A stretch of DNA of 64,000 nucleotides, taken from Trypanosoma brucei. Lineage: Eukaryota. The position numbers and the translations under genes are program-made. The notes under the pieces were generated by a model. The model ran no database searches. It was not told the DNA's origin and saw only the letters and a program-made list of their open reading frames with translations. The DNA is taken from positions 480,001 to 544,000 of the forward strand of contig CP000067.1 of NCBI GenBank assembly GCA_000002445.1. Reading direction: 5' to 3'. Below are positions 2,010 to 64,000 of this stretch, piece after piece. The first letter of the stretch is position 1. Every line of letters starts with the position of its first letter.

Positions 2010-2027
2010 AAAATAATAACAATAATG

Positions 2028-2075
<48 letters not shown>

Positions 2076-2078
2076 GCT
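2010..2078. repeat. (ATA)n / (AAT)n microsatellite, about 22 units
   Basis: aataataataataataataataataataataataataataataataac read directly. Many shorter (TA)n, (CA)n, (GT)n, (CCAT)n and homopolymer tracts occur throughout 1..5700. Confidence 0.95.
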
Positions 2079-11272: not shown

Positions 11273-11859
11273 AGTGTTTTTTTTTTTTTGGTGGTTGAGC
11301 CCCTTACTTTATTTACCTGGATTTTACTGGGATTCAAACGAAACAACACGCACAAGTCTCACTCTCCTGCAACTGCGAACACAAACGAAAGGTGGTTATT
11401 AGATACAAAAAAAAAGTGTGGGTGGTATAAACAATGGGTAGTGAGGAAACGTCTCCTCGCATGGCAACAACGCGAATAGGTATCGCGGGTGCTGAAGTTC
11501 GTTGATAATTCGGTCTACTGAACAGGTTGCCCTAAGGATATTGCGATTGGGAATTTTTACTTCACAAGAAAGTAATTGGTAATGCCACACGCCATGGTGT
11601 GGGAATAGCAGGTTTGACAAAGGTATATGGCAGACAGAAGACGAGTTGCGGGTCAAAACCGGCCACACAGTGCTGTGGTGTTTTATATGTTGCCACGCCA
11701 ACTCAACATCAACACCGTTTTCGTCCCAAGACACACAAGGAAGAGAAAGGAAAACATACCTCCACCACGTAAGACTGCCATCAACCTCCCACACACACAA
11801 AAAAAAACTCCAACCATTCCGTTCTCCACTTCCAAAGTTCACGACAAATAGAATTGCTT

Positions 11860-49200: not shown

Positions 49201-50622
49201 TCCCTCCTCCATACTGTTTCTCTCCTCCAGGAACCGTTGGAGTTCGATTGTATGCTTGAAGCTCCCTTCAGAACAAGGAAGTTGGTTATGTTGCGTGGAA
49301 ACATCCTCTCCTTGTGTAGCGACCAATAAACCTCCTTCATCGATAGCGTTTTGCAGCTTCTTTATTATTCCCTCCAACATATCATTGGTCCTTTGAAGCT
49401 CCTCAAGGGAATGGATCAACTCGCCCTGTCGCCTCGCAGACTCTTCCTCCGCCTTCTGAGCCTCTTCCAACTGGCCTCGGAGGACTTTGTTCTCTCTCTC
49501 ACAAATAGCCAACTGTTGCAGAAGCGTTCTGTTTTCACTCCGAATGTTCTCCATTTCTGTTCGAAGTTCAGCCGCATCCTTCTCCACAACCTTTATTCGT
49601 TCGTCCTCGTCGACACTGTGCTGACCACGTTCTAACGAAGCGTCACTGCACGCTCCCACAACATCCGGCTTACTAGAAGACAAGCCCACCTTGTTTTTGG
49701 AATTCACATACTTGAGGCTGTCGGATTGCAACGTGATGTACCTCCACAGCTCTGACCGGTGAATTGTCGCTATTTTGGGGATGCTGCCTTCTATCAACGC
49801 TGTCGGGATGATAGAAGATCGAAGAATGGTTTTCTCTGGCATCGGTAGGTCATCGAGGGCGTTCCCCCCTTCAACCGCCGCAAGACGATCCTGAATATCC
49901 CTGATAGCAAGGACAATACGTTCCAGATGTTCTTGGGAAGATGCAGCTAGCGTAGTGGCTGCCACATGGTTATGATTCACGTAGTTTAGCTGAGCCTTCA
50001 CCCATTGATGGAGTGGCCCCGCAGCACGTGACGCCACCGAAGCATCGTCGTCGCTGATATCGTTGCTCCTGCAGCGCTTGATGATCTCGTTTCGGCGCTC
50101 GGGAGGCAGCTTTGAAGGGTCAAAACTGAGGACACGTGCTATAAAGCCCGGTTGCCTGAGTTGTGCGCGCAGCTCAGCCCAAGTAGAGGTGGGTAAAGTG
50201 ATACCCAATATAATGAGAATGTCATCCAATATTTTCCTTACAATGGGCGGTGGTGACACATATGACTGAAGCTCTCGGAAGCAAGCACCTTCGATTCCTT
50301 CAACCATGGTGTTAGCACGCTCAACTTGGATTCTCAACGATGCGATACGCTCCTCCTCAACGGCTGCTCTTCCATTCCGTAGTTGTTGGCGTAGTGCAAG
50401 CAGTTGCTCTTTATATGCGGTTGCCCTCTCATCCACGTCTTGTGAAGGGCTATTGTTTGCTACGGAAACACGAGCCACATAATCGGAAAGAAATGTTACA
50501 TACCCCTTCTCGTAGCACCAAGAATCGTCTCTCAGCGTATCAAACGCAACTAAGTCACCGACAGAGACGACATCAGATTTCACTTGAGATAATACTGATT
50601 CATCAAACTCCAAGATCTCCAT
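37255..50622 (-). CDS. giant repetitive coiled-coil protein, 4455 aa. It has a unique N-terminal domain and a basic K/S/T-rich region, then about 120 copies of a 23-aa repeat (EELDSLRALNEQYETLQRTNAAM) with five interspersed 130-aa modules. Possibly a cytoskeletal / flagellum-attachment-zone type repetitive antigen.
   Basis: Single uninterrupted 13.4 kb ORF. The 69 bp period is visible directly in the DNA. All other frames give only the short periodic artefact ORFs listed in the track. From memory, T. brucei has an 'antigenic protein, putative' next to CC2D. Confidence 0.85.
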   Translation of the reverse strand: MEILEFDESVLSQVKSDVVSVGDLVAFDTLRDDSWCYEKGYVTFLSDYVARVSVANNSPSQDVDERATAYKEQLLALRQQLRNGRAAVEEERIASLRIQVERANTMVEGIEGACFRELQSYVSPPPIVRKILDDILIILGITLPTSTWAELRAQLRQPGFIARVLSFDPSKLPPERRNEIIKRCRSNDISDDDASVASRAAGPLHQWVKAQLNYVNHNHVAATTLAASSQEHLERIVLAIRDIQDRLAAVEGGNALDDLPMPEKTILRSSIIPTALIEGSIPKIATIHRSELWRYITLQSDSLKYVNSKNKVGLSSSKPDVVGACSDASLERGQHSVDEDERIKVVEKDAAELRTEMENIRSENRTLLQQLAICERENKVLRGQLEEAQKAEEESARRQGELIHSLEELQRTNDMLEGIIKKLQNAIDEGGLLVATQGEDVSTQHNQLPCSEGSFKHTIELQRFLEERNSMEEGLDDRHGMVPDQERKSTNAAIHTGRHGPLVVTADEEKDDKGMCGFSQSDAARSAHSRVTNTKDTHTAAANTDVDATGDHDTGKQSRLSKTSTKATAAKKKGKGTAIISSEAQEHTDSPRSQSDTHLPKENEDKTYTNEGGEILKRLPSAANISSNSVTSDREEGARTTKKLTARTAVDHKKSKKEVATKISREEKDKTHKVRKTQADSKEAREHLKLTKYKADQTPHKRSKKQQPSPKIKKTKESNPTQCCTEFAADVESQSQQQQQRIISIESTVNKDTAQRTNAAIEDELDSLRAVNEQYEAMQRTNAAIEDELDSLRAVNEQYETLQRTNAAMEEELDSLRALNEQYETLQRTNAAMEDELDSLRAVNEQYEAMQRTNAAMEDELDSLRAVNEQYETLQRTNAAMEDELDSLRAVNEQYEAMQRTNAAIEDELDSLRAVNEQYEAMQRTNAAIEDELDSLRAVNEQYEAMQRTNAAMEDELDSLRAVNEQYEAMQRTNAAMEDELDSLRAANEQYEALQRTTADIGVGNQPLWVVQKELKAARRTNEDMGNELKLLRAFKEQCETLQHVNISAEKDQPTHRILKKQEKNTKEKIIDDERDIAEKRKYTEEYKILQQLNAEVEAQLEYLRALKKRGRSTRHFDPNMEEELDSLRAVNEQYENLRRTNEDIINELDSLRALNEQYKEDSNKDTRVAIEQQPLQATPKQLKEDRTTNDKIQNELDSLRAANEQYETLQRTNAAMEEELDSLRAANEQYETLQRTNAAMEEELDSLRALNEQYETLQRTNAVMEDELDSLRALNEQYETLQRTNAAMEEELDSLRAANEQYETLQRTHAAMEDELDSLRALNEQYETLQRTNAAMEDELDSLRAANEQYETLQRTNAAMEDELDSLRALKEQYETLQRTNAAMEDELDSLRAANEQYETLQRTNAAMEEELDSLRALNEQYETLQRTNAAMEDELDSLRAVNEQYETLQRTNAAMEEELDSLRALNEQYETLQRTNAAMEDELDSLRAVNEQYETLQRTHAAMEDELDSLRAVNEQYETLQRTNAAMEDELDSLRAVNEQYETLQRTNAAMEEELDSLRAVNEQYETLQRTNAAMEEELDSLRAVNEQYEALQRTNAAMEEELDSLRAVNEQYEALQRTNAAMEDELDSLRAVNEQYETLQRTNAAMEEELDSLRAVNEQYEALQRTNAAMEDELDSLRALNEQYETLQRTNAAMEEELDSLRALNEQYETLQRTNAAMEDELDSLRAVNEQYETLQRTNAAMEEELDSLRAVNEQYETLQRTNAAMEEELDSLRAVNEQYEALQRTNAAMEEELDSLRAVNEQYEALQRTNAAMEDELDSLRAVNEQYETLQRTNAAMEEELDSLRAVNEQYEALQRTNAAMEDELDSLRALNEQYETLQRTNAAMEEELDSLRALNEQYETLQRTNAAMEDELDSLRAANEQYETLQRANAAMEEELDSLRAANEQYETLQRTNAAMEEELDSLRAANEQYETLQRTNAAMEEELDSLRAVNEQYETLQRTNAAMEEELDSLRAANEQYETLQRTNAAMEEELDSLRALNEQYETLQRTNAAMEDELDSLRAANEQYETLQRTNAAMEDELDSLRAANEQYETLQRTNAAMEEELDSLRALNEQYETLQRTNAAMEDELDSLRAVNEQYETLQRTNAAMEEELDSLRDVVAEDLDILNVYREFKRECNESGNVISTMTGQILNLERKLKEIERLKEVAEYRCEFIKEKSREIINCVMEEYKKPANNSGTAGGAHETTEESTLQRHLSRLEELDEGIREQSKEEKAVNEELEELRHLNAAMEDELDSLRALNEQYETLQRTNAAMEDELDSLRAVNEQYETLQRTNAAMEDELDSLRAVNEQYETLQRTNAAMEDELDSLRAVNEQYETLQRANAAMEDELDSLRALNEQYETLQRTNAAMEEELDSLRALNEQYETLQRTHAAMEEELDSLRALNEQYETLQRTHAAMEEELDSLRALNEQYETLQRTNAAMEEELDSLRALNEQYETLQRTNAAMEEELDSLRALNEQYETLQRANAAMEDELDSLRALNEQYETLQRTNAAMEDELDSLRAVNEQYETLQRTNAAMEEELDSLRDVVAEDLDILNVYREFKRECNESGNVISTMTGQILNLERKLKEIERLKEVAEYRCEFIKEKSREIINCVMEEYKKPANNSGTAGGAHETTEESTLQRHLSRLEELDEGIREQSKEEKAVNEELEELRHLNAAMEDELDSLRALNEQYETLQRTNAAMEDELDSLRAVNEQYETLQRTNAAMEDELDSLRAVNEQYETLQRTNAAMEDELDSLRAVNEQYETLQRANAAMEDELDSLRALNEQYETLQRTNAAMEEELDSLRALNEQYETLQRTHAAMEEELDSLRALNEQYETLQRTHAAMEEELDSLRALNEQYETLQRTNAAMEEELDSLRALNEQYETLQRTNAAMEEELDSLRALNEQYETLQRANAAMEDELDSLRALNEQYETLQRTNAAMEDELDSLRAVNEQYETLQRTNAAMEEELDSLRDVVAEDLDILNVYREFKRECNESGNVISTMTGQILNLERKLKEIERLKEVAEYRCEFIKEKSREIINCVMEEYKKPANNSGTAGGAHETTEESTLQRHLSRLEELDEGIREQSKEEKAVNEELEELRHLNAAMEDELDSLRALNEQYETLQRTNAAMEDELDSLRAVNEQYETLQRTNAAMEDELDSLRAVNEQYETLQRTNAAMEDELDSLRAVNEQYETLQRANAAMEDELDSLRALNEQYETLQRTHAAMEEELDSLRALNEQYETLQRTHAAMEEELDSLRALNEQYETLQRTNAAMEEELDSLRALNEQYETLQRANAAMEDELDSLRALNEQYETLQRTNAAMEDELDSLRAVNEQYETLQRTNAAMEEELDSLRDVVAEDLDILNVYREFKRECNESGNVISTMTGQILNLERKLKEIERLKEVAEYRCEFIKEKSREIINCVMEEYKKPANNSGTAGGAHETTEESTLQRHLSRLEELDEGIREQSKEEKAVNEELEELRHLNAAMGDELDSLRALNEQYETLQRANAAMEDELDSLRAVNEQYETLQRTNAAMEDELDSLRALNEQYETLQRTNAAMEDELDSLRAVNEQYETLQRTNAAMEDELDSLRAVNEQYETLQRTNAAMEDELDSLRAVNEQYETLQRANAAMEEELDSLRALNEQYETLQRTNAAMEDELDSLRAVNEQYETLQRTNAAMEDELDSLRDVVAEYETLQRTNAAMEEELDSLRALNEQYETLQRANAAMEEELDSLRALNEQYETLQRTNAAMEDELDSLRAVNEQYETLQRTNAAMEEELDSLRDVVAEDLDILNVYREFKRECNESGNVISTMTGQILNLERKLKEIERLKEVAEYRCEFIKEKSREIINCVMEEYKKPANNSGTAGGAHETTEESTLQRHLSRLEELDEGIREQSKEEKAVNEELEELRHLNAAMEDELDSLRALNEQYETLQRTNAAMEDELDSLRALNEQYETLQRTNAAMEDELDSLRALNEQYETLQRTNAAMEEELDSLRALNEQYETLQRTNAAMEEELDSLRAANEQYEAVRRSNSDMEDELKSLRALNEQYETLQRSNTAMEDELKSLRSLNEQYEAARRSNSAMEDELKSLRALNEQYEAARRSNSDMEDELKSLRALNEQYETLQRSNTAMEDELKSLRSLNEQYEAARRSNSAMEDELKSLRALNEKYEALQCTNVCGSAVNDFAYSTVDNMNVKVSKDSAFLCEKTVGHCVADALRVMGCRVVSDDHDVVFLKSGNVGGAISSNVLCPVDGSNSLFGGGVDLDRRGATEGAGGDAGTCVPPLKVKEEVGFPLSSALAASRCEEDDAVVSKINDDCGSLCVSYRGGSGDAFEGSSLLSSLSDVNDCHLCSVLAKRVLKLRESIRVQEETMKYYVESQEELRKCNDLVIKRLEDEVKALREELRGNEA
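37960..48400. repeat. in-frame tandem array of 69 bp units (about 120 copies) inside the giant CDS, with sequence subtypes
   Basis: Direct reading: ...gcagcattggtacgttgcagagtttcatactgttcattcaaagctcgcaatgaatcaagttcatcctccatg... recurs every 69 nt. Variants (caatgaatc / cagcgaatc / cagtgaatc; tcaaagc / tcacagc / tcgcagc) mark subtypes. Confidence 0.95.
38740..44140. repeat. five near-identical higher-order repeat units (about 1287 bp; one about 1143 bp), each holding a 393 bp non-69mer module plus about 13 69-bp units
   Basis: The identical 69-aa artefact ORFs (MPLLLAGFLYSSMTQLIISLDF...) start at 38891, 40178, 41321, 42608 and 43895. Spacings are 1287, 1143, 1287 and 1287 bp, and the surrounding DNA is essentially identical. 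Confidence 0.9.
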
Positions 50623-51739
50623 CGCAAAAAGTATGCGGCACTTTATCAGAAAAAAAAATGTTTATTTTAGCGGAGATCTCAGTACACCCCGCACCTGGTT
50701 CCGGTTGTGCTCTGCCCTATTTTAATTTACTATGGCCCTTTTTCTCTTATTGTCACCCTCTAAATCATACAACTTGCCTGGCCGTTCTCACTCCCAACGC
50801 CTTATTTTCACCCTTACAGGAGCCTCCTCCGCCTCGACTTTTCCTTTCTCCCTTGTGTCCTTCCCGCAACTCTTCCGGCAACCTAATGTTTTGGCTACCT
50901 GTGGACAAGAGTTCTCGAATGCCGAGTATATTTGACACACAAACTACAATCTCCAATGGTTATGCGTAAATATTGTCACAGTATACCTTAGCTCTTAAAA
51001 TAAAAATCAAAGAAGATGGCAAGCGAACGTGAAGCGTTAAACAGCAACGTGATGCATCCATACCGAATATGCCAAGTTTTGTGCCAACAGCGCGGGTGAT
51101 CCCACCACTGCAACTGACTCCACGGTCAAGGGTGGTGCAAATAAATCAGCTCAAAAGCCAACAAAGGGGTCAGTGAGGGTAAAGACAAGATATCTTTTCG
51201 TCCCAACACAAAATTAGACGTTAAATACCGGCCTCTTGGCAGTCATTTACAGGAAATAACGACTGTTAAGCAGTAATGACACAGTGCAGTCCATATTTTC
51301 AGTCCCAAGAAATAATCACATAACTCATTTGAGCACGCGCCCCCGTAACACCTAATTTTAAGTGAGCAGACCATCCATAACTAGTTAGTAGTAGCGCCCA
51401 TATTATCCAATGGTAGTCGAGACAGGGTTGGAGGAGGGCGTCGCAAGACGAGGGAAAGCAGTTTAAAAAACGACATGCCATCCATGGTGACGAAGCAATC
51501 CCTCAACCCATCAAGCAATACCATGGAGAGCAAGAACAAAAGAAATTTTTAGCAGCGGACGAGCCAATAATTTGAGGCTTCGCCTCGTGGCGACAAGTGC
51601 CCAAACTGTACATAAAGCACGTGTCCATCATATCTTATTTAAGGAAACGGCAACACAAACCGCAAACAAAACAAAAGTAAAAACACAGAATATAAATGTA
51701 CACGAGTTCCCCCCCCCCCGCTCCCCGGTAGAGTCCGTC

Positions 51740-51935
51740 GCTTGATTGGAATTCCCGGGTAGTGACGGTTGGGATCCCCAACAAAAGCAGCACACGACTC
51801 TCTCATTCGCACTATCTCAACACCGTGCCTGCACCATGGAGCATTATGTCCAAATACTCCACCGTGGCACTAACGCGTCCCGCCACTCATATAAAAACAA
51901 ATGCAGCTGTGATACGCAGCGGTGACGATTCTCAA
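51740..51935 (+). repeat. dispersed 190 bp element, copy 2
   Basis: Identical to 9607..9795, same orientation, in the spacer between the giant gene and the CC2D-like gene. A C11 homopolymer lies directly upstream. Confidence 0.9.
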
Positions 51936-52616
51936 CAGCACAGATGATGTATCGAGCCGCCGCGTTGTGCTTGAGTGATATTCCACAAGAGCTGTCCGCC
52001 CGCACGGATAATGTGGTACAAACGAACAAAAGAGGTAATGTACCTTGCATCTGAAAGAAGATATGGGGGATCACATGTCATCTACACCTTTTTCTTATAC
52101 AAAACAGAATAGAGTGGAAGAGTACAAAACCAATGGAAAACAATGAAAAATTATCCATCTTTGCACATGGAAATAATAATTCTCAGTCGATTTGGATCGA
52201 GGTCCCCATACGTAGGGAAAGCATTGCTGGAAAGTAGTGGAGTTGTCTGGTGAGCCACGACATACATATCGTCAGTTAAACTGAATTTCGAGTAGCACCA
52301 ATGCCATACTACCGATCTAGGAATTAATGTCCTGTTGCAAAATAAAAATAAAAAAGATGCACAAATAAACCTTCTTCTCTCCCTCCCATATATTAAAAGA
52401 TGGCATAGAAAGATAAATTCGCTCTCCTTTTCGTTCGGTTCGAAGAACTAAGAGATCAAATGATAATTTGAACAAGAACATAAGTAGTCCTAACTCTAAA
52501 CAATAAACAAATATATATATGTACCACAACCCCTCAAATTCTCTACTTTAAGAACGCATTATATATTAAAGGGTGGGAGCAAAAACTAAGGGGGGTTATC
52601 CCTGATTTTCCTTTCT

Positions 52617-55337
52617 CTAATGGGTATTCATAGCCATTAGAACATCAACGCAGTGGAGACTCTCTGGGCTGTTCATTTCCACCCTTTTTTGTAATTCTTT
52701 AAAGCGAATGTTATCTTCTTCTATTTGCGCCAAGGTTGGCGTGGATAGCATACCGAAGTCATCACTTTGTAAGGTGACCTCCACCTCCGCCGCCCGCCTT
52801 GCATCCCGTGTTCCTGGATTTTGAGCAACAATCGCGACGCGTTGACGAGGTACACCGCGGTGAAGGGTAGCCATGGTAAAAGCCGCGTCACCGACATGGT
52901 GCTCTCGTGAATTCCCCTTGGATTTGTAAAAAACGTGGAGTGTAATAACGTCTTCGTCAGGTTGAGCAAGATAAAAGTAAAAAGTCTCATTAAATCTTAT
53001 AGCAGAGCTTAATTCCTTGACAGAGGTTTTGTACTTTTCCTTCACGGATTTTACCTTTATAACGACGTATCCAGGCTCAATAATCGGACGTCCGTTCTTC
53101 ATTAAGTCCCTTAACTCAACAATCGTAACTGCGAGGTGGGCTCCGGCTGCAACGGCGTTCTTTTTTTTATCGGCTAGATGGGGAGACGCCGGCGGGTAGG
53201 CGAGTTGCTCCATAGATCGTCTCCGGGCACTGCGCCTGGTGCTTCTAGAATTTCTTCTTGATTGGTGGCGTTGACCCTCCTGTCGCTCATCTTTAATAGA
53301 AACAAGTTGCTTCCACAGTCCATCATTTGCCTCTCTCAAAGCGAACAGCTGATCATTTAATTCTTGAAGCTTCTTATCCCTCTTTTCTGCGACCTCGGAC
53401 TGCTCCTTTTGTGCGAGGGCCTCTTCAAGTCTTCTCATTCTACTCTCAATCCCACTCCCCCTCATTGGTTCACCTTGAACAATGCCCAGACCGTCATTGG
53501 TCAGATGCCTCTTTAAAACGCTTAAAGATTCCTGAAGCTCATGTATTCTATTCTCCTTACTTTTGTTAGCATGCCGCAAGTCAACGATCTCATTACTAAG
53601 GCGATTCTTCTCTGACTGAAGAAGCTGCAAGCTATTTTGTCGCTGTTCCGTCTCTTTGTAAAAGTCTTGCAGTGACATACGCCTCATTTTCCTTTTCGCT
53701 TCATCTTCCTCCGACCATGCTGTCTCCAGGGATCGCATAAAATCCTCAGTCGAGTCCAACTTATCTTTCAAAAACTTATCAATGACAGTTGCTTCAGAAA
53801 CTCCTCTCGTTCGGGGCCTCTGCTCATTTTCCCCATTTCCCAAATCATTGCTATCATGGGCCAACTCCCCCGCGGAATTATTCCTAGAGTTACGTAAAAG
53901 CAGACGCTGCTGAAGGGATTCGTTCTGCAAAAGTAGTTTGGCTATTTCCGCCTGATACTCACTCCTACTGGATTCACTCGCAGCCAGTTGCTCCTCATTC
54001 GCAGCTTTCAGAGAGGAAATTTGCCTTGTATACTCGAGCAATGAATCACGGAGTTGCTCATTCTCATCTAGAACCGCCTTCATTTCATGTACATCGTAGC
54101 ACCTGGAGTCTTTTTCTCTGTTGATATTGTATCCTTTCTGCAAGGAAAGCTCCTTCTCTGTGGAAACAAGGGCAATTTCTAGCTCCTTCACACGCACCTC
54201 AAGATCGTTGTATTCCTCTTCGGCACGCGAGTTCCGAAGGTGAAGGTGTTCGATTTCCTTATGGAGCTCTTCATTTTCCCTCATAAGTAATTCATTCTTT
54301 CTGCTAATGTTACCATTGAGCACTTCGAGTGATTGGATCCGGCTCTCCCTTGAGGCATCACTATCATCAATTTCGCTCACTTTGTCGTCAACATCATCCA
54401 CTGAGGGGTCGCCCAGGCGCAACTTATTCTTCATGCGGCCTGGTTTCCTCTCTTCCCGGAAGACGGTGACTTCGTGCTTGAAGGAATCCAACTGATGTTG
54501 TATTGCCCGGTAAACATCGCCCCCAGTTCCAATATTATTGCCTTGAAGTGTGCTTATCTCGACCCGTAACGCGGCCTCCATTTCCCGCCACTCACGCTCC
54601 TTCGCACGATAACGTTCCTCAGCAAGCTGTAGTTTCTCCTCGAGCTCGGCAATATCTTCCTTAAGAAGGGCCTGCTGAAGATGTTGATTGCTTCCACGGG
54701 TCTTCACGTCCCAGTTCTCTCTCTGTTGGGCAGTGCCATCGAATCGCTTTACGGACGCAAGCAGCTCTTCATAATCTTGAAGGTTTCGGGATCTTTCGTT
54801 TTCCCAAGTCTCTTTTGCAAGAAGCCATTGATGCTGCACTTCATGAAGTTGTTCCTCCAGCTCTGCGTTTCTTTTCTTTAGTAGTGACACTTGCAGGTCA
54901 TTTTTTTCCTGTTGTTCATTTATATTTTTACATCTTTGGTCAAGGTGGCTTTCACGCTGTTGAGCCTTATTAAGTAACCCCCGAAGCTCATGAACTTCCG
55001 AACGCAGAGAACTGTTTTCTTCAATTAGTTTAACTGCTTCGGCTCTAAATGAAGTTCCTGATGTATCAGCAGTTTCCCCAGATTTCAACTTCATGAGTAA
55101 AGCGTTATTTTCTTCCTCAAGGACCCTCGCATTTCTGTTCGCAAGAATCAGCTTTCCTTCAACATCGCTCAGTTCCTTTAGCTGTTGTCGTAAGTCCCTG
55201 AGGCGAACCTCTTGCTCATACTCGTTGAGCTCCTTGGCGGCAAGTTGTTCCTTCAGACTGGCACAAAGATCACTGAGCTCATCTATTGATTGTCTGTCAT
55301 CAAAGATAGGCTGCTGACCAAAATCAACCTGCTGCAT
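52617..55337 (-). CDS. CC2D: coiled-coil protein with a putative C-terminal C2-like beta domain (CC2D-like, FAZ-associated in T. brucei)
   Basis: 906 aa. About 700 aa are heptad-rich coiled-coil (QLKELSDVEGKLILANRNARVLEEENNALLMKLK...). The C-terminal roughly 150 aa are non-coiled and beta-rich (VVIKVKSVKEKYKTSVKELSSAIRFNETFYFYL...ITLHVFYKSKG). This matches the described architecture of TbCC2D. The identification rests on architecture and synteny recalled from memory. Confidence 0.6.
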   Translation of the reverse strand: MQQVDFGQQPIFDDRQSIDELSDLCASLKEQLAAKELNEYEQEVRLRDLRQQLKELSDVEGKLILANRNARVLEEENNALLMKLKSGETADTSGTSFRAEAVKLIEENSSLRSEVHELRGLLNKAQQRESHLDQRCKNINEQQEKNDLQVSLLKKRNAELEEQLHEVQHQWLLAKETWENERSRNLQDYEELLASVKRFDGTAQQRENWDVKTRGSNQHLQQALLKEDIAELEEKLQLAEERYRAKEREWREMEAALRVEISTLQGNNIGTGGDVYRAIQHQLDSFKHEVTVFREERKPGRMKNKLRLGDPSVDDVDDKVSEIDDSDASRESRIQSLEVLNGNISRKNELLMRENEELHKEIEHLHLRNSRAEEEYNDLEVRVKELEIALVSTEKELSLQKGYNINREKDSRCYDVHEMKAVLDENEQLRDSLLEYTRQISSLKAANEEQLAASESSRSEYQAEIAKLLLQNESLQQRLLLRNSRNNSAGELAHDSNDLGNGENEQRPRTRGVSEATVIDKFLKDKLDSTEDFMRSLETAWSEEDEAKRKMRRMSLQDFYKETEQRQNSLQLLQSEKNRLSNEIVDLRHANKSKENRIHELQESLSVLKRHLTNDGLGIVQGEPMRGSGIESRMRRLEEALAQKEQSEVAEKRDKKLQELNDQLFALREANDGLWKQLVSIKDERQEGQRHQSRRNSRSTRRSARRRSMEQLAYPPASPHLADKKKNAVAAGAHLAVTIVELRDLMKNGRPIIEPGYVVIKVKSVKEKYKTSVKELSSAIRFNETFYFYLAQPDEDVITLHVFYKSKGNSREHHVGDAAFTMATLHRGVPRQRVAIVAQNPGTRDARRAAEVEVTLQSDDFGMLSTPTLAQIEEDNIRFKELQKRVEMNSPESLHCVDVLMAMNTH

Positions 55338-58050
55338 TGTTAACCTTCTTGAATACTTCCTAATGTATTATTATTAACCTTCCGAAGACACAACAAAAAA
55401 ACAGGGCAATTTTTTTTAAAAAGGGACTCTTTTTTCGCTCAACACTCCTGAATATAACTTTTTCAATATTTGATAAACAAAGGCTTTATCCTTTTTCAAA
55501 TTAAAACGAATACACATAAATACCACACGCCTACATATGTTAAGACATAAATGAACAGCAGCGGATATGCTTGGGTAAAACGATAAAGACTTTTTACTAC
55601 TATACAAAAATGAGCAAGCTCATCAAACAAGTCATACCCGAACGCCGATGAGCATTTCTCGGCTGTCAAACCGGTTACAAAAATAAGTTGAGAAGGTATT
55701 TAAAAATGAAATAAGCAAAATTTTGGCAGGTAGGACACAAAAATATAAGAGAAAATGCCTCCACACGTACGCGTGCATGCATCCACATCCGCGGCAAATA
55801 ATAAAAAGAACAACGGGGGAAAAAGGTAGCAACACCCATCTATAACTAATAAACACCAAACAAATACTCTTAAATAGCAAATATTGTAACATCAAACGAA
55901 GCGATTACTCAATAAGCAACAATGCTTAAACAAATTCGCCAAATAGGTAAGTGCATTTATACTAATGTGACACTACAAAAAGCAAAAAAAAATGTACCAA
56001 GTTATGCCAAACACCTCTCAATGCGCTAAAAGCACCAAATTCCCACAAAGCAAGGAAACAGAGATGATAATAACAAATGCTACATTCAGTACTGTTTTTC
56101 GTATCCGCCAGCACAAGAAAGGCTTCACTGACAAAAATAATATACAACCACGGTAAATAAAGCAAAGGCTATATGTACAGAAGAACATCCACATCTTAGT
56201 ATTTTCATGTGAAAAAAAATGCTTGCAACAGCCTAAAACAATCAGGGACGCCACGGCCCATAGTGATCATCAAAACATTCCTTAGTACCTAGACAACAGT
56301 CAAAGGTTCAAAACAAAGCCAACACGGCCACAGCATCAAATGGAACATGAATGGGTTTAAATGAATTAAACAGTAACAAAAATAAGAAGGTATATCTCCC
56401 CATATCCTAACCAAAAAAAAAGAAGTGTAAAAAAGAAAAAGTGATCACAAAGTTGATATGCAATAACCGTATGTTTCTCTACCCTAACAAACTCGAGGTA
56501 AAACTACGGCACAGTTCGTCCGCACATCCAACGAACAAAAGAAGTACAAAATAAGACCCCACATACCTCCGTAGCTCCCGATACCTAATACAAGAAATGC
56601 GTCAGAGTTTTTCTCCATTTGCTGTGTAAAACGAAAACAGAAAAAACCCCGTAACAGCACCCAGATCTCATGCTTAGCGGCTATACAAAAGAGACAGCGA
56701 CAAGAAATACACCAACCCAAGCAACCTTACAGCTACCCTTCACCGCCAAGTGTCAGAATCCTTACGCACATCCCCCCAAGTAGCCCCTATGCCACGATCG
56801 CCCACTGGGAACCCCCAGTGGGATTGGCAGCGGCGCATACAAATCCCACCGCCCCCTTCCCGACGTCAGTCTAAATATAGCAAGAGTTGCGTCGAAAAAC
56901 AAACCAATGAGTTAAGGGATACCGACGCGGACTTTCCATCTCTTTCTCCTCCGGGCTCCTTTATACGCGGCCGGAAGCCACCCACTCTCCCCCCCCTCAC
57001 ATAAGCCTAAAGAAACTCAGCGTACACAACTGTCAATGCCGCCACCGCTCAAGCAATGCAGCACGCAGGCACAGACAGCACCACCTTCGCCACGCCAGAG
57101 AGCCAACAGACGCAGACCGCTGTCCCGGCGCACCTCTTCTGCTCCAGCGTTGCGTTGCGCCCTCAGAGGGAGGCGACAACATCCCGCTATGGGGAAGACA
57201 CCACACACATACAGAGCGACCACACCGGCAATGCGAGACGGCAGAACACGGTGGCACGTTGAGCCAGACACTATTACCACGAGTCGATGAGAGCCGACAG
57301 AATCAACAAACAAACGTCACCGCCGAACGCCACGGGGCGCCGCTCACGACCGCTGCCCAGCAGCTTGCGGAAAGACCATCAACGGCTACGTAAAGTAAAT
57401 CGAAACTAAAACCCTAGCCGAACGACCCTGGCGGCCGCCGTCCCAGAGAAGTGTGCGGCCCCATCACCTCGCGATCAGTGACAGGACAGGCCACGCGCCC
57501 ATGCACGGCACAGCAAAAAAAAAGCCAAATGTTCTATTGCGAGGGAAACCCAACATTGGAAAACTTGGCGTTCCAGATGTCTTAACCGCGACACGGCAAC
57601 GACAGGGACCCGGAAGCAGAGGCTCAACTCACGACCCTCCTGTGCAGCACCGACAAAGACGCACGGTCTCATCGCAACGGAAAACCCCGCAACAGCATAG
57701 GAGGTCGCCGCTCGTCACCAACCTAACGGAGGACGGCCCCAACACAGCGCGGTCCGTACTACCCAACCAGTGACTCCATTATGGCAGCGAGCCGCTCCCT
57801 TGGTTCTCGGTTACGAGGGGAAAACTCTCAGTTCTGGAGCACAAAGCCTCAGCAGAGAGTAACCCGGCCCAACGACGGCACTCCAGCCCCACAAGGAAGC
57901 AGCTGGCTGTCGTGGGTTGCGTGGATGTCCCTTTATGTCTCTTACCGTATAGGGTCTCACAAACACGTTCACAAGGGGGCGAAGGCATCTCCCTTGCATT
58001 TACTCCTCAGCATTCGCTCTGTCACAAAATGTAGTTTCACTTAGAAACCT
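55338..58050. promoter_or_regulatory. putative divergent strand-switch region and start zone for the minus-strand polycistron. It is A-rich, then CA-rich, on the plus strand, which is GT-rich on the transcribed minus strand.
   Basis: No credible ORF on either strand. All upstream genes are on the minus strand and their 5' ends face this region. A compositional switch occurs near 58 kb. Dispersed, GT-rich pol II start regions are described for T. brucei (established knowledge; not testable from sequence alone). Confidence 0.35.
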
Positions 58051-61000
58051 GCTATGAGACCCGGGCCATCACTTCGGAATGTTTTTTTTGGGGGTGTGGA
58101 GAGCATTGTAGACTACGTTTACCGTGTTCTGCGGTTGGGTTTGGCGAAGCGGCTTCGAAAGAAGCTTTACCGCTGGGTAACAACAAGCAAAAAATAGCTT
58201 ACTGGCCGAAAGGTGGGCTAAGAAAGGTTCTTTCCGGGCCTTGCGCTAAAACAGTTATCTTCACTTGTGGCAAAAGATTTACGCAGCGCTTTTTACTGTA
58301 GAGGTTGAAAAAGCTTTGCAAACGGCACTGGATGGTATGGGTGTGATATTTCAAGTGCGGCAAAAGTTTGAGAGCGCCGAACAACGGTGGCAGTTTGTCC
58401 CCATTTTTTTTTCCACTTGAGGTGGCAGAGCACCAATAAAAAAAAGTTGTTGTTCCGTTCGGCCCTAGAAATATTTTAGCCTGCTAAAAAAGCACGCTGC
58501 GGAGCCACCAAAAATAAAAAATAAAAGACTGTCAGCATAAACATTTTATTTCTGTTCTACCTTTCAAAACACCAGAAAAAAGTTACTATCCCGGAGTCAG
58601 TGGTTCTCAATTTGCAGCGGACACCGTGCGACACCATTTTAAGGGCGGCGCATTGAAAAATTTCCGATATCCTCTCTCTGTTGCAGTCACCGCATTCCTC
58701 CTCATACAAACTAAAAACCAACGTTTACACGACTAACTGTTCAACAACCCTGGTGGGGCCAAACATCTCGCGGGATTTCAGTGTGCGCTAACTTGCTCAG
58801 GAAACAGAAGCAATTACTATAATTCCGAAGATTTTTGGAAAGCCAAACTTTGAGCTACCCTTCCCCCGAGTGGCACTGTCACTGCACTACCATCTCAAGG
58901 GTTGTGGGAGACAACTGTGGAAACATATGGCAACCGACGAGCCGGCGAAAGCCCCAGCAGCTTAGCAGTGACGCCATCCCCTTTATTACCTTTCTCAAGG
59001 GATTTGCTAGAGTGAACTGCAACAGGGTTTCGCGATAAATTCGAAAACTTTCCGTAGAAATGTCGCTCATCCCCCACCCACCTTCCGCTGTCAGAGGACA
59101 ATCGAGGGAAGCCCGTTCAGGAAAATCGCTCTCCCGCACAAAAAAAATTTAATTGAGGATAGGCACATCGTGCGACATCACCCGACCCTCCACTGTTAAT
59201 AACCATAGTGAACTTCCTTTTTAACAAGTGTCACAAGACGCAGGTTCCAACCCCCAATGTAGTTTCTTCGCAAGAGACCTAACGATTGGTAGGAGGTACA
59301 AAGATTGCCCAGCAAGGGGACAGAACGCCGCGGCTGCGCCGGAGACCCGCCATTATTTCAAAAGGGTCACCGCCAAGAAAGCAAGACATGGGGTGTTTTT
59401 TGGGGTGCTTGAAGAGCCACTTCACACTAGCACTCGGTGGCTCCCAACACGGGCAAAAGGAGAAATCCGGAAGTATTAGGAAACCACCCTTCTTCTACTG
59501 CAAAAGAATTCTCTAAGCACACAAAAAGTGTGCGAAAGGCTAAATATCCCCCCCTTCCATAACCGATGGCCACTTTCTCCACGTAATGGCGGCGAAATCA
59601 AGAGATTTTCCGGACGTCCTAACTTACCCTTGCTCGCAGCAAACACCTACAAACGACGGTCTGGCGTCATGAGACAGCGTCACAGCAGCAGAAAGTACTT
59701 CAGACGTCTCAGAGAAAGGCATGACAGGTAGTTTACGGAGTAATTAGGGACCGCCACGCACGCGCCGCCCCTCCGGGGACGACCTACCTTTCCTCTGCGA
59801 ATCGGTGATGGCCCTTGGCTCGTAGCAGATCCCTGCCTTTGGCGGTTGTAGCAGGCAATGCAAAAAAAAAAAAGAAAACGCCGGTACAGTCCACCGTGCA
59901 TCTGGCCCCGGAAGCACCTTTTTCCCCAGAGCCGTGCTGAACCATCCCTCCCCCAGGGAAGGACTCCCCACGCTCCCAACAGTCCTCTTTGACGGTGTTT
60001 CTGTTTCACGTTATTTTTTCACTTGTCGCAGATCTCGGTCAAGGAGGGGAAATGATGAGGAAGATTTAAGGGAAGTGGAAATCAAAACGCTCCTTCACCC
60101 TACTTTGTGAAAGTTTGCTTGTTCAGGGGTGTGATGTAAGGCTAATGTGTTCTATCCTGCAAGGGTGCATGTGTCACTGACACTAGTGGTGGACATGAGT
60201 CTGTGTGGTGTCAGTGGTTGCCGCCAGGTGAACTCACACCCAGGGGGAGGGTAAACGTTCCACATTGCCACCGTAGGTGCCTCGGCTACGCTGTTAAATG
60301 GCCACTGCGTCCTGCTGTGTTTGGGTACCCCCTCTTCTTCAAGGGTTGTCCGTTTGCTTTGCTCAGGAGGTGGTGCCGTATGGAAAAGGGGGAATTCCGT
60401 GAGTGAAAACTCATAAAACGAGCACTCCACACCGTGTTTTTCGGAGGCTGATATATCGGCTGGAAAGTCTCACCTTTTCAGCCTTCCCGAAACCGGTCTG
60501 ACTCGCTCGATGTTACTGCCACACCCCTCGTTTGTTGGCCGCTTCTTTCAGTGCCGCTCAAAGGAAATGGCCGGGGATCGGTTATGGGAAGACAGGAACA
60601 ATCGGTTCATAACGATTTTTGTCAGTGAGTGGGGTGGGGTGACGGCTCTTTCCACCTCCACGGCTGTCATTTGGTGTCTGCACTCAATTTATGGACTCAG
60701 GGCTTTGTGCCGATGTTACCCCTTTAGGACTGCGAACAAAACGCGTGTTAACACGAATATTTGTTTCATCCTACAGGTTTATAAGTGCTTCGCCATCTCT
60801 GCGCGCTGCCTCTATGTTTCTCCCTTTTGGATGTGTTGCTTTTCGGCCCCTGACTGCCAGCCAGTCGGGCCCCTTTGTGGTGTTGATTTCGTTGTCACGT
60901 GCACGGCAGAAGTGCCTCGGCTGGGCAGACGTTCGTGGGCTTTGATCGCTTTGTTTTTGGGCGTGTACGTCCTCGTAGTCCGGGGTCTCTTCTGCAGTTG

Positions 61001-64000
61001 GGGGGGGGGGACCTCCAGTATTTGACTTGGTGATAGCAGCTGGTTTGTGGGTGGAGCAGTGTTTGCCCGTTTAGTTGGGGTACTCGTAGTGTGAAAAGGG
61101 TCACTCCGTCTCTGAGCTCCTCCGATCGGCACCGCGCCGCATATGCTACGGAGGACTCGCCGTCACTATTGAGTTGGGAAGCTCCGCACGGCATTGCGAT
61201 TTTTGCCGCTTCGTAGCCGAGTCTAAGCGTCGATGAAATGAGGCCCTGGGAGGTGGGTCCAGTTTGGTTGGACCACTTCTTCTTCATTTTGGTCCTCACA
61301 GCACGTGAGTTGTGCACGGCTGCGGGGGGCGAAGTTCCACGTGCCTTGTTACGGGTGGTCGCCTGCGTCGTCGGCTGTGGCTCGATTTTCACTCCTTTTT
61401 GGCGAGGAAAGTCGGGGCGTATATTGTTTGAGTACCGGGTGGGGCACGTGCCTTTTCTCTAACCGCGGCACGCCAGCGGTTCGCGCGTCCCGGGCTCCAC
61501 ATTCGTAGCTGTGAATTTGGGCTCAAAGGTCACGCTGCTATTCTCCCATGCTGGGTGGTTTAGTTACTGTTGCAGCAATTTGCTTGTTTAGGACAGACAC
61601 AGGCGCCCATTTACGGTAGTTGTTGCCCTCGCCTCGCTTGCGTTTGTGGGGTACCGCCAGTGAGCAGCGATGGAGGTCCTGCGCAGTAGCAGGCGGGGGT
61701 GTGCTCTTGGCATTTGGTGTGATATGCGCGGGTGATTGCTGGGAGCGGTTTTCGTGACGTTTCCGAATGAAGCTATTTATTTCTGTCTGTTGAAGATTAT
61801 TTCCATTTTGCAACGACTAATAAAGTTGTTATCAAAATAGCCCAGGTAGAAGTGCTTTCAACCCTTTTAGGCGGCGGTGCGCGGTGCTTTGGATGCCAAG
61901 ACCAATGGAATTGTTGCCGCTAAGTTGCCAGGGCTCTGACGTACTTCATTGAGCGTCGCGCTTCCATATTTTTTTTGTTTCTTGCAGGGACCGGTGCCAA
62001 AGCATTGAAGCATTTGCCGCATAGTCCTGGATCGGTGCTGCATGCACCCGGGGGTTGCACCCTGTAGTTAGCGCGTGTTCCGAGAGGAGGTGGTCAGTGG
62101 TTTCCTTTTCCGTCTTGTGAGGGGAATTGAAGTTCCCATTTCCCATATGTAGTGTGGGTTAATGATGCTGTTGAATCTTGCCCACGGATTCTCCGACGAA
62201 TTTGTGGAGCACATTTTTTCAGTGGTTGTTCGTTGAAATAAAGGGGGTGTGGACATACGGTTTTGCTATTGGTGTTTCGGAAGACTGCTTCTCCATACTA
62301 GAAGTGGGCTGTTACAGAGTCGTTCCAGTTCTCTGCAAAACACGGGAATCGGTCAACATTCTGTTTCCGAACTGTGTTTACAACACTTGCGTGTTCGGAC
62401 TGGTCACTGGTTGTTTAGTTGCAGCGTTTACGAATGGGGTCGCGAGAAGTTGTGTCCCCGATCGTACTGCCGTGACGTGTAACGGGGCTGTGCTTCGATG
62501 CCCACCGCGGGAACCCTTCTGCATGGCGCAGGTAATACCCTTTTGCTTTTACTGGCGTCACGTTGTCGGCTGATTGAGCACCTTTAACAGATGTCCGCCC
62601 ATTCGAATTGAAAGGTTTTGGACACCCCCTAACCGATCAGTTTATGCAAACGAGCACAGGGGCGTAATGTGACTTTTCGGTTTGTGGAACCTTGGCTCAC
62701 CCGGGGGATATGGGCGACCAAGGCTATCAACGTATTCCACCGTTAAAGGGACAACAAAATTGCCTTTAATATATATTTTTTCACGTCCCTAGATAAATGA
62801 ATGTGTCGACAACTACCATTTACCTAGTGTAGAATACCCGTCTCTTTGGTTGCATGGGCTGTGAGGAGGGGGAGCTGTGCGTGGAAGGTGAAGCGACGGG
62901 CGCGCGCGCTAATAAACGTATTTCTGCCGGAATGAAGAGGATATTCACGCTGTCATCTAGCTCGGAGAGGGGGTTAAACAAGAGCAAATGAAGCTTAATT
63001 AAATCACCAGAGATCTGGAAGTTACAATCAATTATTCTGCTGAACCGCATCCAGTTGAAGTAACCTGCGAAGAGTTCTGGAGTTAGCCGGGAGTCGGCTG
63101 TCTTTGGGATGGGGACGGAACACCGAGGGCTTTACAGTATGCTATCTGGGTGATATGACCTAATTACTTTTGTACGTCGAGATGGTTTGGGGATGCCTGA
63201 TATGTTAACATGCCAATGTGATGGCTCCCTCGCTCCATTCTGCAGGGGAGATGTGGGTGAGTTTTGTTCCGGTGGAACAACTTGTATCTTTTTTTTTTTG
63301 CATTGTAAGGGAATGCCAGAAGCTACTTCCTCTGTGCATGGAATAGGATACCCCCGATTATGGACTGTGATGGGTATACTGTTGAGAACTGCAAGGGTGA
63401 CCCAGAAACAGCGAGGGGATGTTACAAATGTCTCCCCGTCCCCGTCCCGGAACGGTGAATTTTGGACCCTGACTGCAAAATCCTCCAGGGGGCGTGTTCG
63501 GGCCGGGGTTTGTTAGCGCCCACTGACATGTGTCAGATGAGATAGTTCGCCTGTTTCGTATTTTGCCATACGGCTGGACCTCTCTGACTGTGATACCGAT
63601 ATGATGGAGCTATTTCCATGTAGACACAACTGATCTGTGTTTCATCCGAACGTCTCGCTGAGTCAAGGGAGAGTTCAAGCGGATGACCGTAATTCATTTA
63701 TTTCTTTATGTGAAAATGTACTTCGTGGCATTGTGCTTTCCAATGCAGTTGGATGTCGTTATCACACAGGATTTTTGTTGCTGCGGAATTACACCTATTG
63801 GAGCTGTATTTCTTGTGCGACTTGATACGATCGATTTTGCGGTGACGCTACCCTTCCTCTCTGAGTATGGCGCCGCCTACGTAGATATTGTCGGCAGAAC
63901 GGGGGATTGTCGGAGGGAAAATGGTGTGGTCGGGGCATCTGCTGCGGAATACTTGAACGGGGCGCACCATGTTGATTCCGTTGTTTATGTTGGCAATGTC

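Follow-up and report, generated by a model that had tools for sequence, protein, structure and literature searches.

The remnant of an ArfGEF gene appears to lie within a known divergent transcription start region of Trypanosoma brucei chromosome 4

Upstream of the first gene of a minus-strand gene array lies a stretch of DNA that an initial annotation had interpreted as a divergent transcription start region, and the locus raises the question of whether transcription begins there in both directions and of what the DNA in between consists of. Exact protein matches identified the window, by which we mean the whole analysed stretch of 64,000 nucleotides, as positions 480,001–544,000 of chromosome 4 of T. 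brucei TREU927, and according to the gene coordinates of Kolev et al. (2010) a window position equals the chromosome coordinate minus 480,000. Table S14 of that study, which was built on 5′-triphosphate RNA-seq and names units without start coordinates, lists two ‘Divergent’ Pol II transcription units, Tb927.4.2080→Tb927.4.1220 on the minus strand and Tb927.4.2100→Tb927.4.3190 on the plus strand. This classification, together with the consecutive outward acceptor sites of the same study, supports the initial interpretation and also makes it already known: the start region between Tb927.4.2080 and Tb927.4.2100 has been published before, and as a start region it is nothing new. We regard it as very probable that about 535.3–544.6 kb of chromosome 4 is a divergent strand-switch region at which Pol II starts two outward polycistronic units. 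The locus is one of the Pol II start regions described in T. brucei (Siegel 2009; Kolev 2010; Wedel 2017; Cordon-Obras 2022), where divergent strand-switch regions usually measure 5–10 kb and carry two core promoters in opposite orientation (PMC11796357). There is one addition to be made to this known locus, namely that its right-hand half appears, judged from sequence, to be the remnant of an ArfGEF gene that is intact in other trypanosomes. The features in window coordinates are:

52,617–55,337, minus strand: Tb927.4.2080, C2-domain protein CC2D, first gene of the minus-strand polycistron (exact match to XP_844358.1; Pfam C2; leading ORF of a ‘Divergent’ unit, Kolev Table S14)
55,338–55,412, minus strand: 41-nt 5′UTR, acceptor AG and the T-rich tract just upstream of the AG (Kolev Tables S3/S12 and sequence)
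55,379–56,700, minus strand: tract of low GC (36%) preceding the first acceptor, with a T-rich minus strand (A 41.5%, G+T 0.372 on the plus strand)
56,701–57,800, minus strand: GC-rich (58%) block, G+T-rich in the minus sense, candidate promoter zone of the minus unit (composition, 10-mers)
57,801–59,980, no strand: middle zone in which the net skew is small (G+T 0.461), probably the stretch between the two start regions (composition)
59,981–60,036, no strand: strand-composition switch point (global minima of cumulative skews)
59,991–61,010, plus strand: GT-rich (0.585) stretch just upstream of the extrapolated relic start, candidate promoter zone of the plus unit (composition, 10-mers)
60,510–61,025, plus strand: Tb927.4.2090, 171 aa, ‘hypothetical’ (deposited gene model)
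61,010–64,000, plus strand: 5′ half of a putative decayed BIG-type ArfGEF (Sec7) pseudogene (synteny, profile-to-DNA alignment, diagonal matches)
63,674–64,135, plus strand: Tb927.4.2100, 153 aa, ‘hypothetical’, first 327 nt in the window (exact match to XP_844360.1)

The boundaries of the two units are set by the spliced-leader acceptor sites. Large minus-strand ORFs reach no further than 55,337, the position that had been given as the start of the most upstream gene, and the major acceptor site of this gene, Tb927.4.2080, is at 535,378 (window 55,378) with a 5′UTR of 41 nt (Kolev 2010, Tables S3/S12). Its acceptor AG is seen as CT on the plus strand at 55,379–55,380, and the functional polyY/AG occupies ~55,379–55,412. 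After 535,378 on the minus strand, the next sites in Table S12, which covers procyclic forms only, are 544,582 and 544,744 on the plus strand, with no acceptor between (Kolev 2010). The site 544,582, equivalent to window position 64,582, belongs to the plus-strand transcript Tb4.NT.17, so that the window ends 582 nt before the first trans-spliced RNA of the plus strand; 9.2 kb separate the first outward acceptor sites. This is in line with the earlier proposal of a plus-strand polycistron whose first gene lies outside the window, and it provides the spliced-leader site that was to be looked for on the plus strand downstream of 58 kb. Outward polycistrons occupy both flanks, as the minus-strand genes extend to 55,337 and the plus-strand genes Tb927.4.2100, PP2C, a WD40 protein and CFAP58 follow beyond at the corresponding T. 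equiperdum locus, where a polyY-AG was also found at the predicted place of the plus-strand acceptor.

Between these sites, the absence of any plausible ORF over 8.6 kb had been claimed, and this holds insofar as the longest ORFs in 55,338–64,000 have only 171 and 165 aa and each frame contains 91–115 stops per 2,887 codons, or ~1 per 29 codons, but two deposited gene models, Tb927.4.2090 and Tb927.4.2100, are located there. Pfam searches gave nothing above noise for the 10 longest ORFs of the region (91–171 aa). Tb927.4.2090 is probably not a real gene: its protein cluster has members from T. brucei subspecies only, it has no acceptor site in Kolev Table S12 and no Pfam match, and it is not the first ORF of the plus unit in Table S14. 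Tb927.4.2100 lies inside the apparent ArfGEF relic, ahead of the first acceptor on the plus strand, and our analysis provides evidence that both are spurious gene models.

The strand composition reverses within this interval. Over the whole 64 kb, cumulative (G+T)−(A+C) is lowest at 59,981 and cumulative G−C at 60,036. The strand switch that had been noticed is therefore real, but its position is ~59,980–60,040 and not 58 kb, as 57.8–58.5 kb is weakly GT-rich (0.524) and 58.5–60.0 kb still AC-leaning (0.432); the sequences quoted in the initial annotation are all present, with the GT-rich ones all at or past 60,187. Compared with a window background of 0.474, plus-strand G+T is 0.369 in 55,338–57,800 (z=−10.4) and 0.583 in 59,991–64,000 (z=+13.8). 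Quantification of GT versus AC skew thus confirmed the reversal, and each side is indeed GT-rich on its outward-transcribed strand (0.587 in the minus sense, 0.583 in the plus sense), the reference being a minus-strand G+T of 0.526 over window positions 1–55,337. The description of 56.7–57.8 kb as CA-rich was accurate (C 35%, A 28%, GC 58% in 56,701–57,800). The adjoining 55.4–56.7 kb is A-rich as stated (A 41.5%), but the minus strand is T-rich there rather than a true polypyrimidine tract (purines 0.51–0.59 on the plus strand). In ordinary intergenic DNA inside the minus unit, sense-strand G+T already amounts to 0.554, and sense G+T richness is therefore not promoter-specific.

The published GT-rich promoter 10-mers swap strand at ~60 kb, the same place as the skew: 55–60 kb contains 24 of the Wedel 10-mers on the minus and 4 on the plus strand (12 and 0 in 56–58 kb; 5 on the minus strand in 54–56 kb), and 60–64 kb contains 10 on the plus and 1 on the minus strand. 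Wedel et al. (2017) demonstrated experimentally that GT-rich sequences can drive directional initiation and H2A.Z deposition, and in their Dataset EV1, G10 is the top coding-strand 10-mer (132 vs 17). On the minus strand, the block 56,701–57,800 carries G8 (56,989–56,996), G6 (56,772–56,777) and GT-repeat 10-mers (57,199–57,213 and 57,304–57,315), and on the other side a G11 run (61,000–61,010) closes the GT-rich stretch 59,991–61,010. From these sequence features we infer putative promoters of the minus unit at ~56.7–57.8 kb and of the plus unit at ~60.0–61.0 kb. The chromatin state of the start region is likewise what we infer. Divergent start regions of T. brucei are enriched in H2A.Z, H2B.V, H4K10ac and BDF3, with Pol II at the 5′ edge, for which ChIP-seq data exist (e.g., GSE98061). 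Sequence-specific core promoter motifs have reportedly been described by Cordon-Obras and colleagues. G-runs of 9–12 were also found inside the minus unit and are thus not start-site-specific, and comparison with the orthologous regions in T. vivax, T. cruzi, T. theileri and Leishmania revealed no conserved sequence.

What the plus arm consists of is suggested by gene order. In T. cruzi and T. theileri, the order is CC2D | ArfGEF – PP2C, with an intact ArfGEF (1,908–1,909 aa) that opens the plus unit, ~0.8–0.9 kb from CC2D (ORF to ORF), and syntenic with the T. brucei relic. The T. brucei clade has retained PP2C (78% identity), and no ArfGEF ORF is present between CC2D and PP2C. Instead, ~61.0 to ~66.9 kb, the end being outside the window, appears to be a colinear, stop-ridden relic of the 1,909-aa BIG-type ArfGEF (Sec7) gene. 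The aligned pieces inside the window, in T. cruzi residue numbering, are:

61,610–61,642, plus strand: relic piece aa 199–209
61,766–61,837, plus strand: relic piece aa 252–275
62,254–62,578, plus strand: relic piece aa 419–531
63,189–63,306, plus strand: relic piece aa 736–774

The ArfGEF protein matches the relic in tblastn with E=2.8e-5, a frameshift-tolerant profile-to-DNA alignment scored 79.8 versus 42.1±3.6 for shuffles, and four relic segments spanning aa 419–1735 share one diagonal within 40 nt. Inside the window, the real score was reached by 0 of 100 shuffles in a banded test (41.8 vs 26.1±3.9) and by 0 of 60 in a sum-of-4 test (127.0 vs 90.6±8.2). The reading frame is destroyed, with stops and frameshifts within the aligned segments. 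ArfGEF is present in T. cruzi and Leishmania and missing from the Salivarian proteomes searched: among the annotated, word-sharing candidates that were scored, no T. brucei, T. congolense or T. vivax protein matched at E≤1e-10, with all three proteomes in the database. We consider it reasonably probable that the plus arm is a unitary ArfGEF pseudogene, encoded by no searched Salivarian proteome, which has kept its register over ~4 kb and is still transcribed (Tb4.NT.17). No earlier report of an ArfGEF relic at this locus was found in the literature searched. African trypanosomes are said to have undergone lineage-specific losses of membrane-trafficking genes, such as that of AP-2. As in unitary pseudogenes and AP-2-type losses, a conserved trafficking factor is gone from the Salivarian proteomes; unlike in AP-2-type losses, a colinear relic seems to be still detectable at the syntenic site and transcribed as a polycistron leader.

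Other explanations of the interval have to be weighed. It could be a long internal spacer in one continuing minus-strand polycistron, as the genes inside the window are on the minus strand only and a second long ORF-poor, AT-rich spacer is found at 1–5,500 in the same minus-strand unit. However, the next acceptor past 55,378 belongs to the plus strand, plus-strand genes follow, the skew reverses at 60.0 kb and both units are listed as ‘Divergent’ (Kolev Table S14); unbroken minus-strand transcription, which would have spoken against a start region, is not what these data describe, and the spacer explanation is refuted to the point of being virtually untenable. The claim of a divergent transcription start region is thus borne out by the published units, the outward acceptor sites, the skew reversal and the downstream plus-strand genes. 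The ORF-free stretch is very unlikely to represent a degenerate retroelement (ingi, RIME, DIRE), centromeric repeat DNA, or a Pol III or small-RNA gene cluster. Such elements often sit at trypanosome strand-switch regions, and this general knowledge of the T. brucei regions is what speaks for them, positive evidence having not been found here. Comparison of the region with itself and with the remainder of the window showed no similarity, and the Pfam result also speaks against such elements. T. brucei centromeres are AT-rich tandem arrays with a unit of ~147 bp, and a centromeric or tandem-repeat region was rejected, as 55–64 kb contains no tandem repeats; a Pol III or small-RNA cluster was rejected, as the region contains no tRNA and no Rfam family.

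Two further proposals concern the composition of the region and an additional function. The plus-arm skew may be mainly passive, produced by the fossil coding composition of the ArfGEF and transcription-coupled mutational bias, and the real promoter would then be short and near 60–61 kb, or chromatin-defined. We regard this as a possibility to be taken seriously, if a somewhat doubtful one: intact ArfGEF orthologs already have a coding-strand G+T of 0.53–0.54, the relic has 0.58 inside and outside the window compared with the intergenic value given above, it spans 61.0–64.0 kb of the arm, and G-runs lack specificity for start sites. On the other hand, the kilobase preceding the relic (59,991–61,009) is no less GT-rich (0.585) and terminates in G11, the skew is strongest (0.633) in the minus arm, where there is no gene relic, and in the experiments of Wedel et al. 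such sequences drive directional transcription. It is rather unlikely, though conceivable, that the central ~57.8–60 kb might also be an ORC1/CDC6 binding site or early replication origin. Tiengwe et al. (2012) reported central ORC1/CDC6 binding, flanked by twin H4K10ac peaks, at 70% of divergent strand-switch regions and placed 19 of 42 early origins at such regions, but the literature text searched gave no locus-specific datum, nor does the sequence offer a recognised origin signature.

For the divergent start region, we propose that Pol II starts outward twice, towards Tb927.4.1220 on the minus and Tb927.4.3190 on the plus strand, with each arm marked by sense-strand G+T richness, G-runs and GT/T-rich 10-mers of the kind of Wedel et al. 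The primary transcripts would yield no mature mRNA before the first polyY/AG acceptor on either side (55,378; 64,582), for which reason the interval would be without real genes. The plus side would be long because an ancestral BIG-type ArfGEF decayed there (~61.0–66.9 kb), and the relic would now represent the untranslated start of the plus unit, ‘novel transcript’ Tb4.NT.17 included.

GT-rich sense strands, G-runs and the absence of mature mRNAs inside are common to this locus and other T. brucei divergent strand-switch regions, and there is no categorical difference, except that the skew here is asymmetric (minus arm 0.633, plus arm 0.58) and the plus arm apparently built on a gene relic. 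Metazoan CpG-island-type promoters, which are dispersed and bidirectional and with which Kolev 2010 and Wedel 2017 drew comparisons, likewise have broad initiation zones, no TATA-like motif, divergent output and H2A.Z marking; unlike these, each trypanosome promoter drives tens of genes as one polycistron, and initiation in trypanosomes generally has a strand bias of ~4:1. The locus shows that start regions are recognisable from sequence skew alone, and its anatomy is now given by the switch at 60.0 kb, the two acceptors (55,378 and 64,582) and the candidate promoter blocks (56.7–57.8 and 60.0–61.0 kb).

The putative relic bears on secretory-pathway remodelling in African trypanosomes, and there is now evidence that Tb4.NT.17 is a pseudogene RNA. 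As the register would have been kept over ~4 kb and the relic still be transcribed, the fossil could, if the assignment is true, serve to date and study how the T. brucei lineage lost a core trans-Golgi Arf activator; a further implication would be that a long gene-free polycistron leader can arise from a dead first gene. The relic further bears on the growth of strand-switch regions from <1 kb in T. cruzi to 5–10 kb in T. brucei. The T. cruzi and T. theileri regions next to CC2D likewise have a divergent pair at the switch, with the cumulative skew minimum within, but in T. brucei the ArfGEF appears decayed and there are ~5.7 kb more between the CC2D ATG and the extrapolated relic start.

The ORF-poor DNA at 55,338-64,000 lies between Tb927.4.2080 on the minus strand and Tb927.4.2100 on the plus strand, and the proposal of the initial annotation that it is a divergent transcription start region is correct, and the locus had already been recognized as a start region for divergent Pol II transcription. 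Four proteins of the window match T. brucei brucei TREU927 chromosome 4 entries exactly, which makes the window 480,001-544,000 of Tb927_04_v4. The first gene of the minus unit, CC2D (Tb927.4.2080), is the ORF at 52,617-55,337 (-), which matches XP_844358.1 exactly and contains a Pfam C2 domain. Kolev et al. (2010, PMC2936537) place this ORF at 535,337..532,617 of chromosome 4 (window coordinate plus 480,000), its main spliced-leader acceptor at 535,378 and its poly(A) site at 532,182, and they list Tb927.4.2080->1220 (-) and Tb927.4.2100->3190 (+) as 'Divergent' Pol II transcription units. Inspection of the sequence confirmed the minus-strand acceptor AG, seen as CT at 55,379-55,380 on the plus strand, with a T-rich tract preceding the AG. 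The consecutive rows of the published acceptor-site table are Tb927.4.2080 (535,378), Tb4.NT.17 (544,627/544,744) and Tb927.4.2110 (546,575), Tb4.NT.17 being a plus-strand 'novel transcript' at 544,582-546,468 (PMC2936537), and therefore no acceptor site was mapped between window positions 55,378 and 64,582 in procyclic forms. In a 99% identical copy of the locus from T. equiperdum, the tract ...ttctgtttgtttttctgtatcctttAG is found exactly at the equivalent of 64,582, and the plus-strand order downstream is PP2C, a WD40 protein and CFAP58. The first plus-strand gene had been expected just outside the window, and this was borne out by the acceptor at 64,582 and the plus-strand PP2C, WD40 protein and CFAP58 genes that follow; minus-strand transcription does not run unbroken through the region, as the next mapped acceptor is a plus-strand site and plus-strand genes follow it. 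The acceptor-to-acceptor distance of 9.2 kb is typical for divergent strand-switch regions of T. brucei, which span 5-10 kb and have two core promoters in opposite orientation (PMC11796357).

The base composition changes along the region as follows.

G+T fraction on the plus strand, by interval
55,338-56,700: 0.372 (A 41.5%, GC 36%)
56,701-57,800: 0.366 (C 35%, A 28%, GC 58%)
57,801-58,500: 0.524
58,501-59,990: 0.432
59,991-62,500: 0.596
62,501-64,000: 0.560

Relative to the G+T background of the window (0.474), the left block (55,338-57,800) reaches z=-10.4 and the right block (59,991-64,000) z=+13.8. The strand-composition switch noticed earlier is thus real and sharp, as judged by the cumulative minimum, but it is positioned at ~60.0 kb and not at ~58 kb: cumulative (G+T)-(A+C) over the whole 64 kb has its global minimum at 59,981 and cumulative G-C its minimum at 60,036, and the GT-rich strings originally quoted are all found at or beyond 60,187. 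What had been read as a switch at 'about 58 kb' is a small transient in composition. Inside the minus unit, sense-strand G+T is 0.554 in ordinary intergenic DNA versus 0.520 in coding DNA, and compared with the intergenic value the minus arm is clearly higher (0.633) and the plus arm only modestly higher (0.58). The skew is a robust marker of transcription direction, which alone does not locate a promoter.

In H2A.Z domains of roughly 10 kb, Pol II and 5'-PPP RNA peak at the 5' edge and initiation is sense-biased by ~4:1, and when 10-mers enriched on the coding strand, most of them G- and T-runs, are assembled into synthetic elements, these drive transcription in an orientation-dependent manner and lead to the deposition of H2A.Z (Wedel et al., 2017, PMC5579346). 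We scanned the window with the 157 10-mers of Dataset EV1 from that study and found 24 on the minus versus 4 on the plus strand at 55-60 kb, and 10 on the plus versus 1 on the minus strand at 60-64 kb. The plus strand carries a G11 run at 61,000-61,010, and minus-strand G-runs are G8 at 56,989, G7 at 59,548 and G6 at 56,772. Plus-strand C9-C12 runs, which are sense-strand G-runs of the minus unit, also occur at 1940, 22689, 27226, 36745 and 51709, all outside large ORFs and well within the minus polycistron, and long G-runs are therefore not specific to start regions.

The identity of the locus, the orientation of its genes, the acceptor sites, the skew and the gene relic described below are shown directly, whereas we infer the promoter positions, the state of the chromatin and a possible role as an origin. 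We propose that Pol II would initiate in two dispersed start regions of opposite orientation. The minus start most likely lies within 56.7-57.8 kb, a GC-rich and, on its sense strand, G+T-rich block with the G8 run and GT repeats, and the plus start most likely within 60.0-61.0 kb, a GT-rich block that ends in G11 and would be equivalent to the short gap that ancestrally preceded the start of an ArfGEF gene. Transcripts would proceed outward, and the RNA before the first polyY/AG on each side would be discarded or seen as non-spliced polyadenylated species, which have been described for such sites (Kolev et al., 2010, PMC2936537). The ~2 kb at 57.8-60.0 kb with little skew are probably a poorly transcribed centre as described between divergent start regions (Wedel et al., 2017, PMC5579346). 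Such centres are often bound by ORC1/CDC6 (Tiengwe, 2012); the text of that study holds no origin data specific to this locus.

The absence of ORFs reported at first holds insofar as none longer than 171 aa exists beyond 55,337, but the deposited annotation does place two genes there.

Annotated genes of the region
60,510-61,025, plus strand: Tb927.4.2090, 'hypothetical'
63,674-64,135 (past the window end), plus strand: Tb927.4.2100, 153 aa, 'hypothetical'

Each of the six frames has 91-115 stops per 2,887 codons, the 10 longest ORFs of the region (91-171 aa) gave no Pfam match above noise, and the clusters of Tb927.4.2090 and Tb927.4.2100 were found to have members from T. brucei subspecies only. 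Tb927.4.2090 is probably a non-coding ORF inside the start region. Nevertheless, a genome-scale RNAi screen for human-serum resistance lists it with the low-confidence 'other hits', on the basis of one RNAi target fragment (Alsford et al., 2014, PMC4022737). The genes of this region are not mentioned in the supplementary data of Nilsson 2010 and Siegel 2010. At 55-64 kb, no tRNA, no Rfam family (at gathering thresholds and at E<=1) and no tandem repeat was found. Direct and inverted repeats in the region were short chance-level matches only, and blastn of the region against itself and the rest of the window gave no significant similarity. A decayed retroelement within 55.4-61 kb is conceivable but improbable.

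Orthologs of Tb927.4.2080 are present in T. congolense, T. vivax, T. theileri, T. melophagium, T. rangeli, T. cruzi and Leishmania. As in T. brucei, CC2D is the first gene of its unit in T. cruzi and T. theileri, where it is divergent from a 1,908-1,909-aa ArfGEF protein with Sec7-like_HUS, Sec7 and HDS domains, which is followed by PP2C genes; the ORF gap between CC2D and ArfGEF is only ~0.8-0.9 kb, with the cumulative skew minimum within it. The T. brucei clade has kept PP2C (78% identity) but lacks the ArfGEF ORF. When the T. cruzi ArfGEF was used as a database query, the orthologs retrieved came from T. cruzi, T. theileri, T. melophagium, Leishmania, Leptomonas and others, and T. brucei, T. 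congolense and T. vivax contributed none. By blastn, the region has no significant similarity to the orthologous upstream DNA of T. vivax, T. theileri, T. cruzi and L. tarentolae.

A relic of the missing gene could be recognized by protein-level comparison. In tblastn, the T. theileri ArfGEF gave a 75-aa match to the T. equiperdum locus (E=2.8e-5), and the weaker matches were spaced at exactly 3 nt per residue. An HMM search of stop-to-stop fragments was colinear with a best score of 8.7 bits, and is too insensitive alone. We therefore rely on a frameshift-tolerant local alignment of a five-species ArfGEF profile (T. cruzi numbering) to the DNA with block-shuffle controls, which scored 79.8 on the plus strand versus 42.1±3.6 for 60 block-shuffles (maximum 53.0), 40.2 for the reverse complement and 40.0 for the reversed sequence. 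With iterated masking, four of the eight top alignments fell on a single diagonal, within 40 nt.

Plus-strand alignments to the ArfGEF profile (T. cruzi residues)
62,253-62,577: aa 419-531, score 41.8 (32/109 identical, 1 stop, 2 frameshifts)
64,437-64,576 (window-equivalent): aa 1150-1200, score 38.0
64,916-65,140 (window-equivalent): aa 1301-1375, score 79.8
66,052-66,225 (window-equivalent): aa 1675-1735, score 57.8

When only window sequence was used, in a band of ±45 nt around the relic diagonal, the best score was 41.8 versus 26.1±3.9 (0/100 shuffles as high), other diagonals scored 17-27 except for 37.6 at a +500-nt shift (a match of aa 791-818 at 63,877-63,960), and the four best in-band segments summed to 127.0 versus 90.6±8.2 (0/60 shuffles). 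Extrapolation of the diagonal places residue 1 at ~61,000-61,030, at the G11 run, and the C-terminus at ~66.9 kb, just before PP2C. The diagonal, the banded tests and the extrapolation identify 61.0-64.0 kb as the 5' half of a decayed gene for a BIG-type ArfGEF. Tb927.4.2090 ends where the relic starts, and Tb927.4.2100 lies inside it. Tb4.NT.17 (10900-12786 of comparison locus L007; window-equivalent 64,582-66,468) coincides with the transcribed 3' half of the relic and is therefore pseudogene RNA and not a new gene. The fossil is a modest observation, of which we found no report in the literature searched; trypanosomes are not covered in the text of a paper on ArfGEF evolution (PMC6727740).

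If the ArfGEF was lost in a common ancestor of all Salivaria, the register that is still kept over 4 kb would be surprisingly well preserved, and an alternative would be a loss that was independent or recent in the T. brucei clade. In T. vivax a relic could not be demonstrated, the scan giving one match on the right strand (aa 411-457; 48.0 versus shuffles of 41.2±3.7, 2/40), with no common diagonal.

Other features of these neighbourhoods were also seen. In T. vivax, a 278-aa ORF is duplicated in inverted orientation with 96% identity (L002 2-616 (-) and 2083-2916 (+)) upstream of the CC2D ortholog. Then come ~6 kb without called genes, which include a stretch of 28-33% GC adjoining CC2D that is similar to the low-GC tract at 55.4-56.7 kb in T. 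brucei. In L. tarentolae, the gene divergent from CC2D encodes a very large FAZ1-domain repeat protein ~6.2 kb away (L006 1-3802 (-)), whereas the FAZ1-domain genes of T. brucei are downstream of CC2D on the same strand, and the neighbourhood has therefore been rearranged between the genera.

Within the minus-strand polycistron, window 1-5500 (chromosome 4, 480,001-485,500) is ORF-poor over at least 5.5 kb, with 27-34% GC and many A/T-rich simple repeats, and is far more AT-rich than other intergenic DNA in the window. Between Tb927.4.2070 and Tb927.4.2080 lies the 950-nt 'novel transcript' Tb4.NT.16 at 51143-52093 (-) (Kolev et al., PMC2936537), and a scan confined to its edges (51,844-52,074) found ORFs of 70-76 aa only. 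Tb927.4.2070 itself ('antigenic protein', 37255-50622 (-)) is a 4,455-aa ORF with ~145 tandem 72-nt (24-aa) repeats, and in T. vivax the protein encoded next to CC2D (867 aa) matches both its N-terminus (46% identity, 416 aa) and its repeats.
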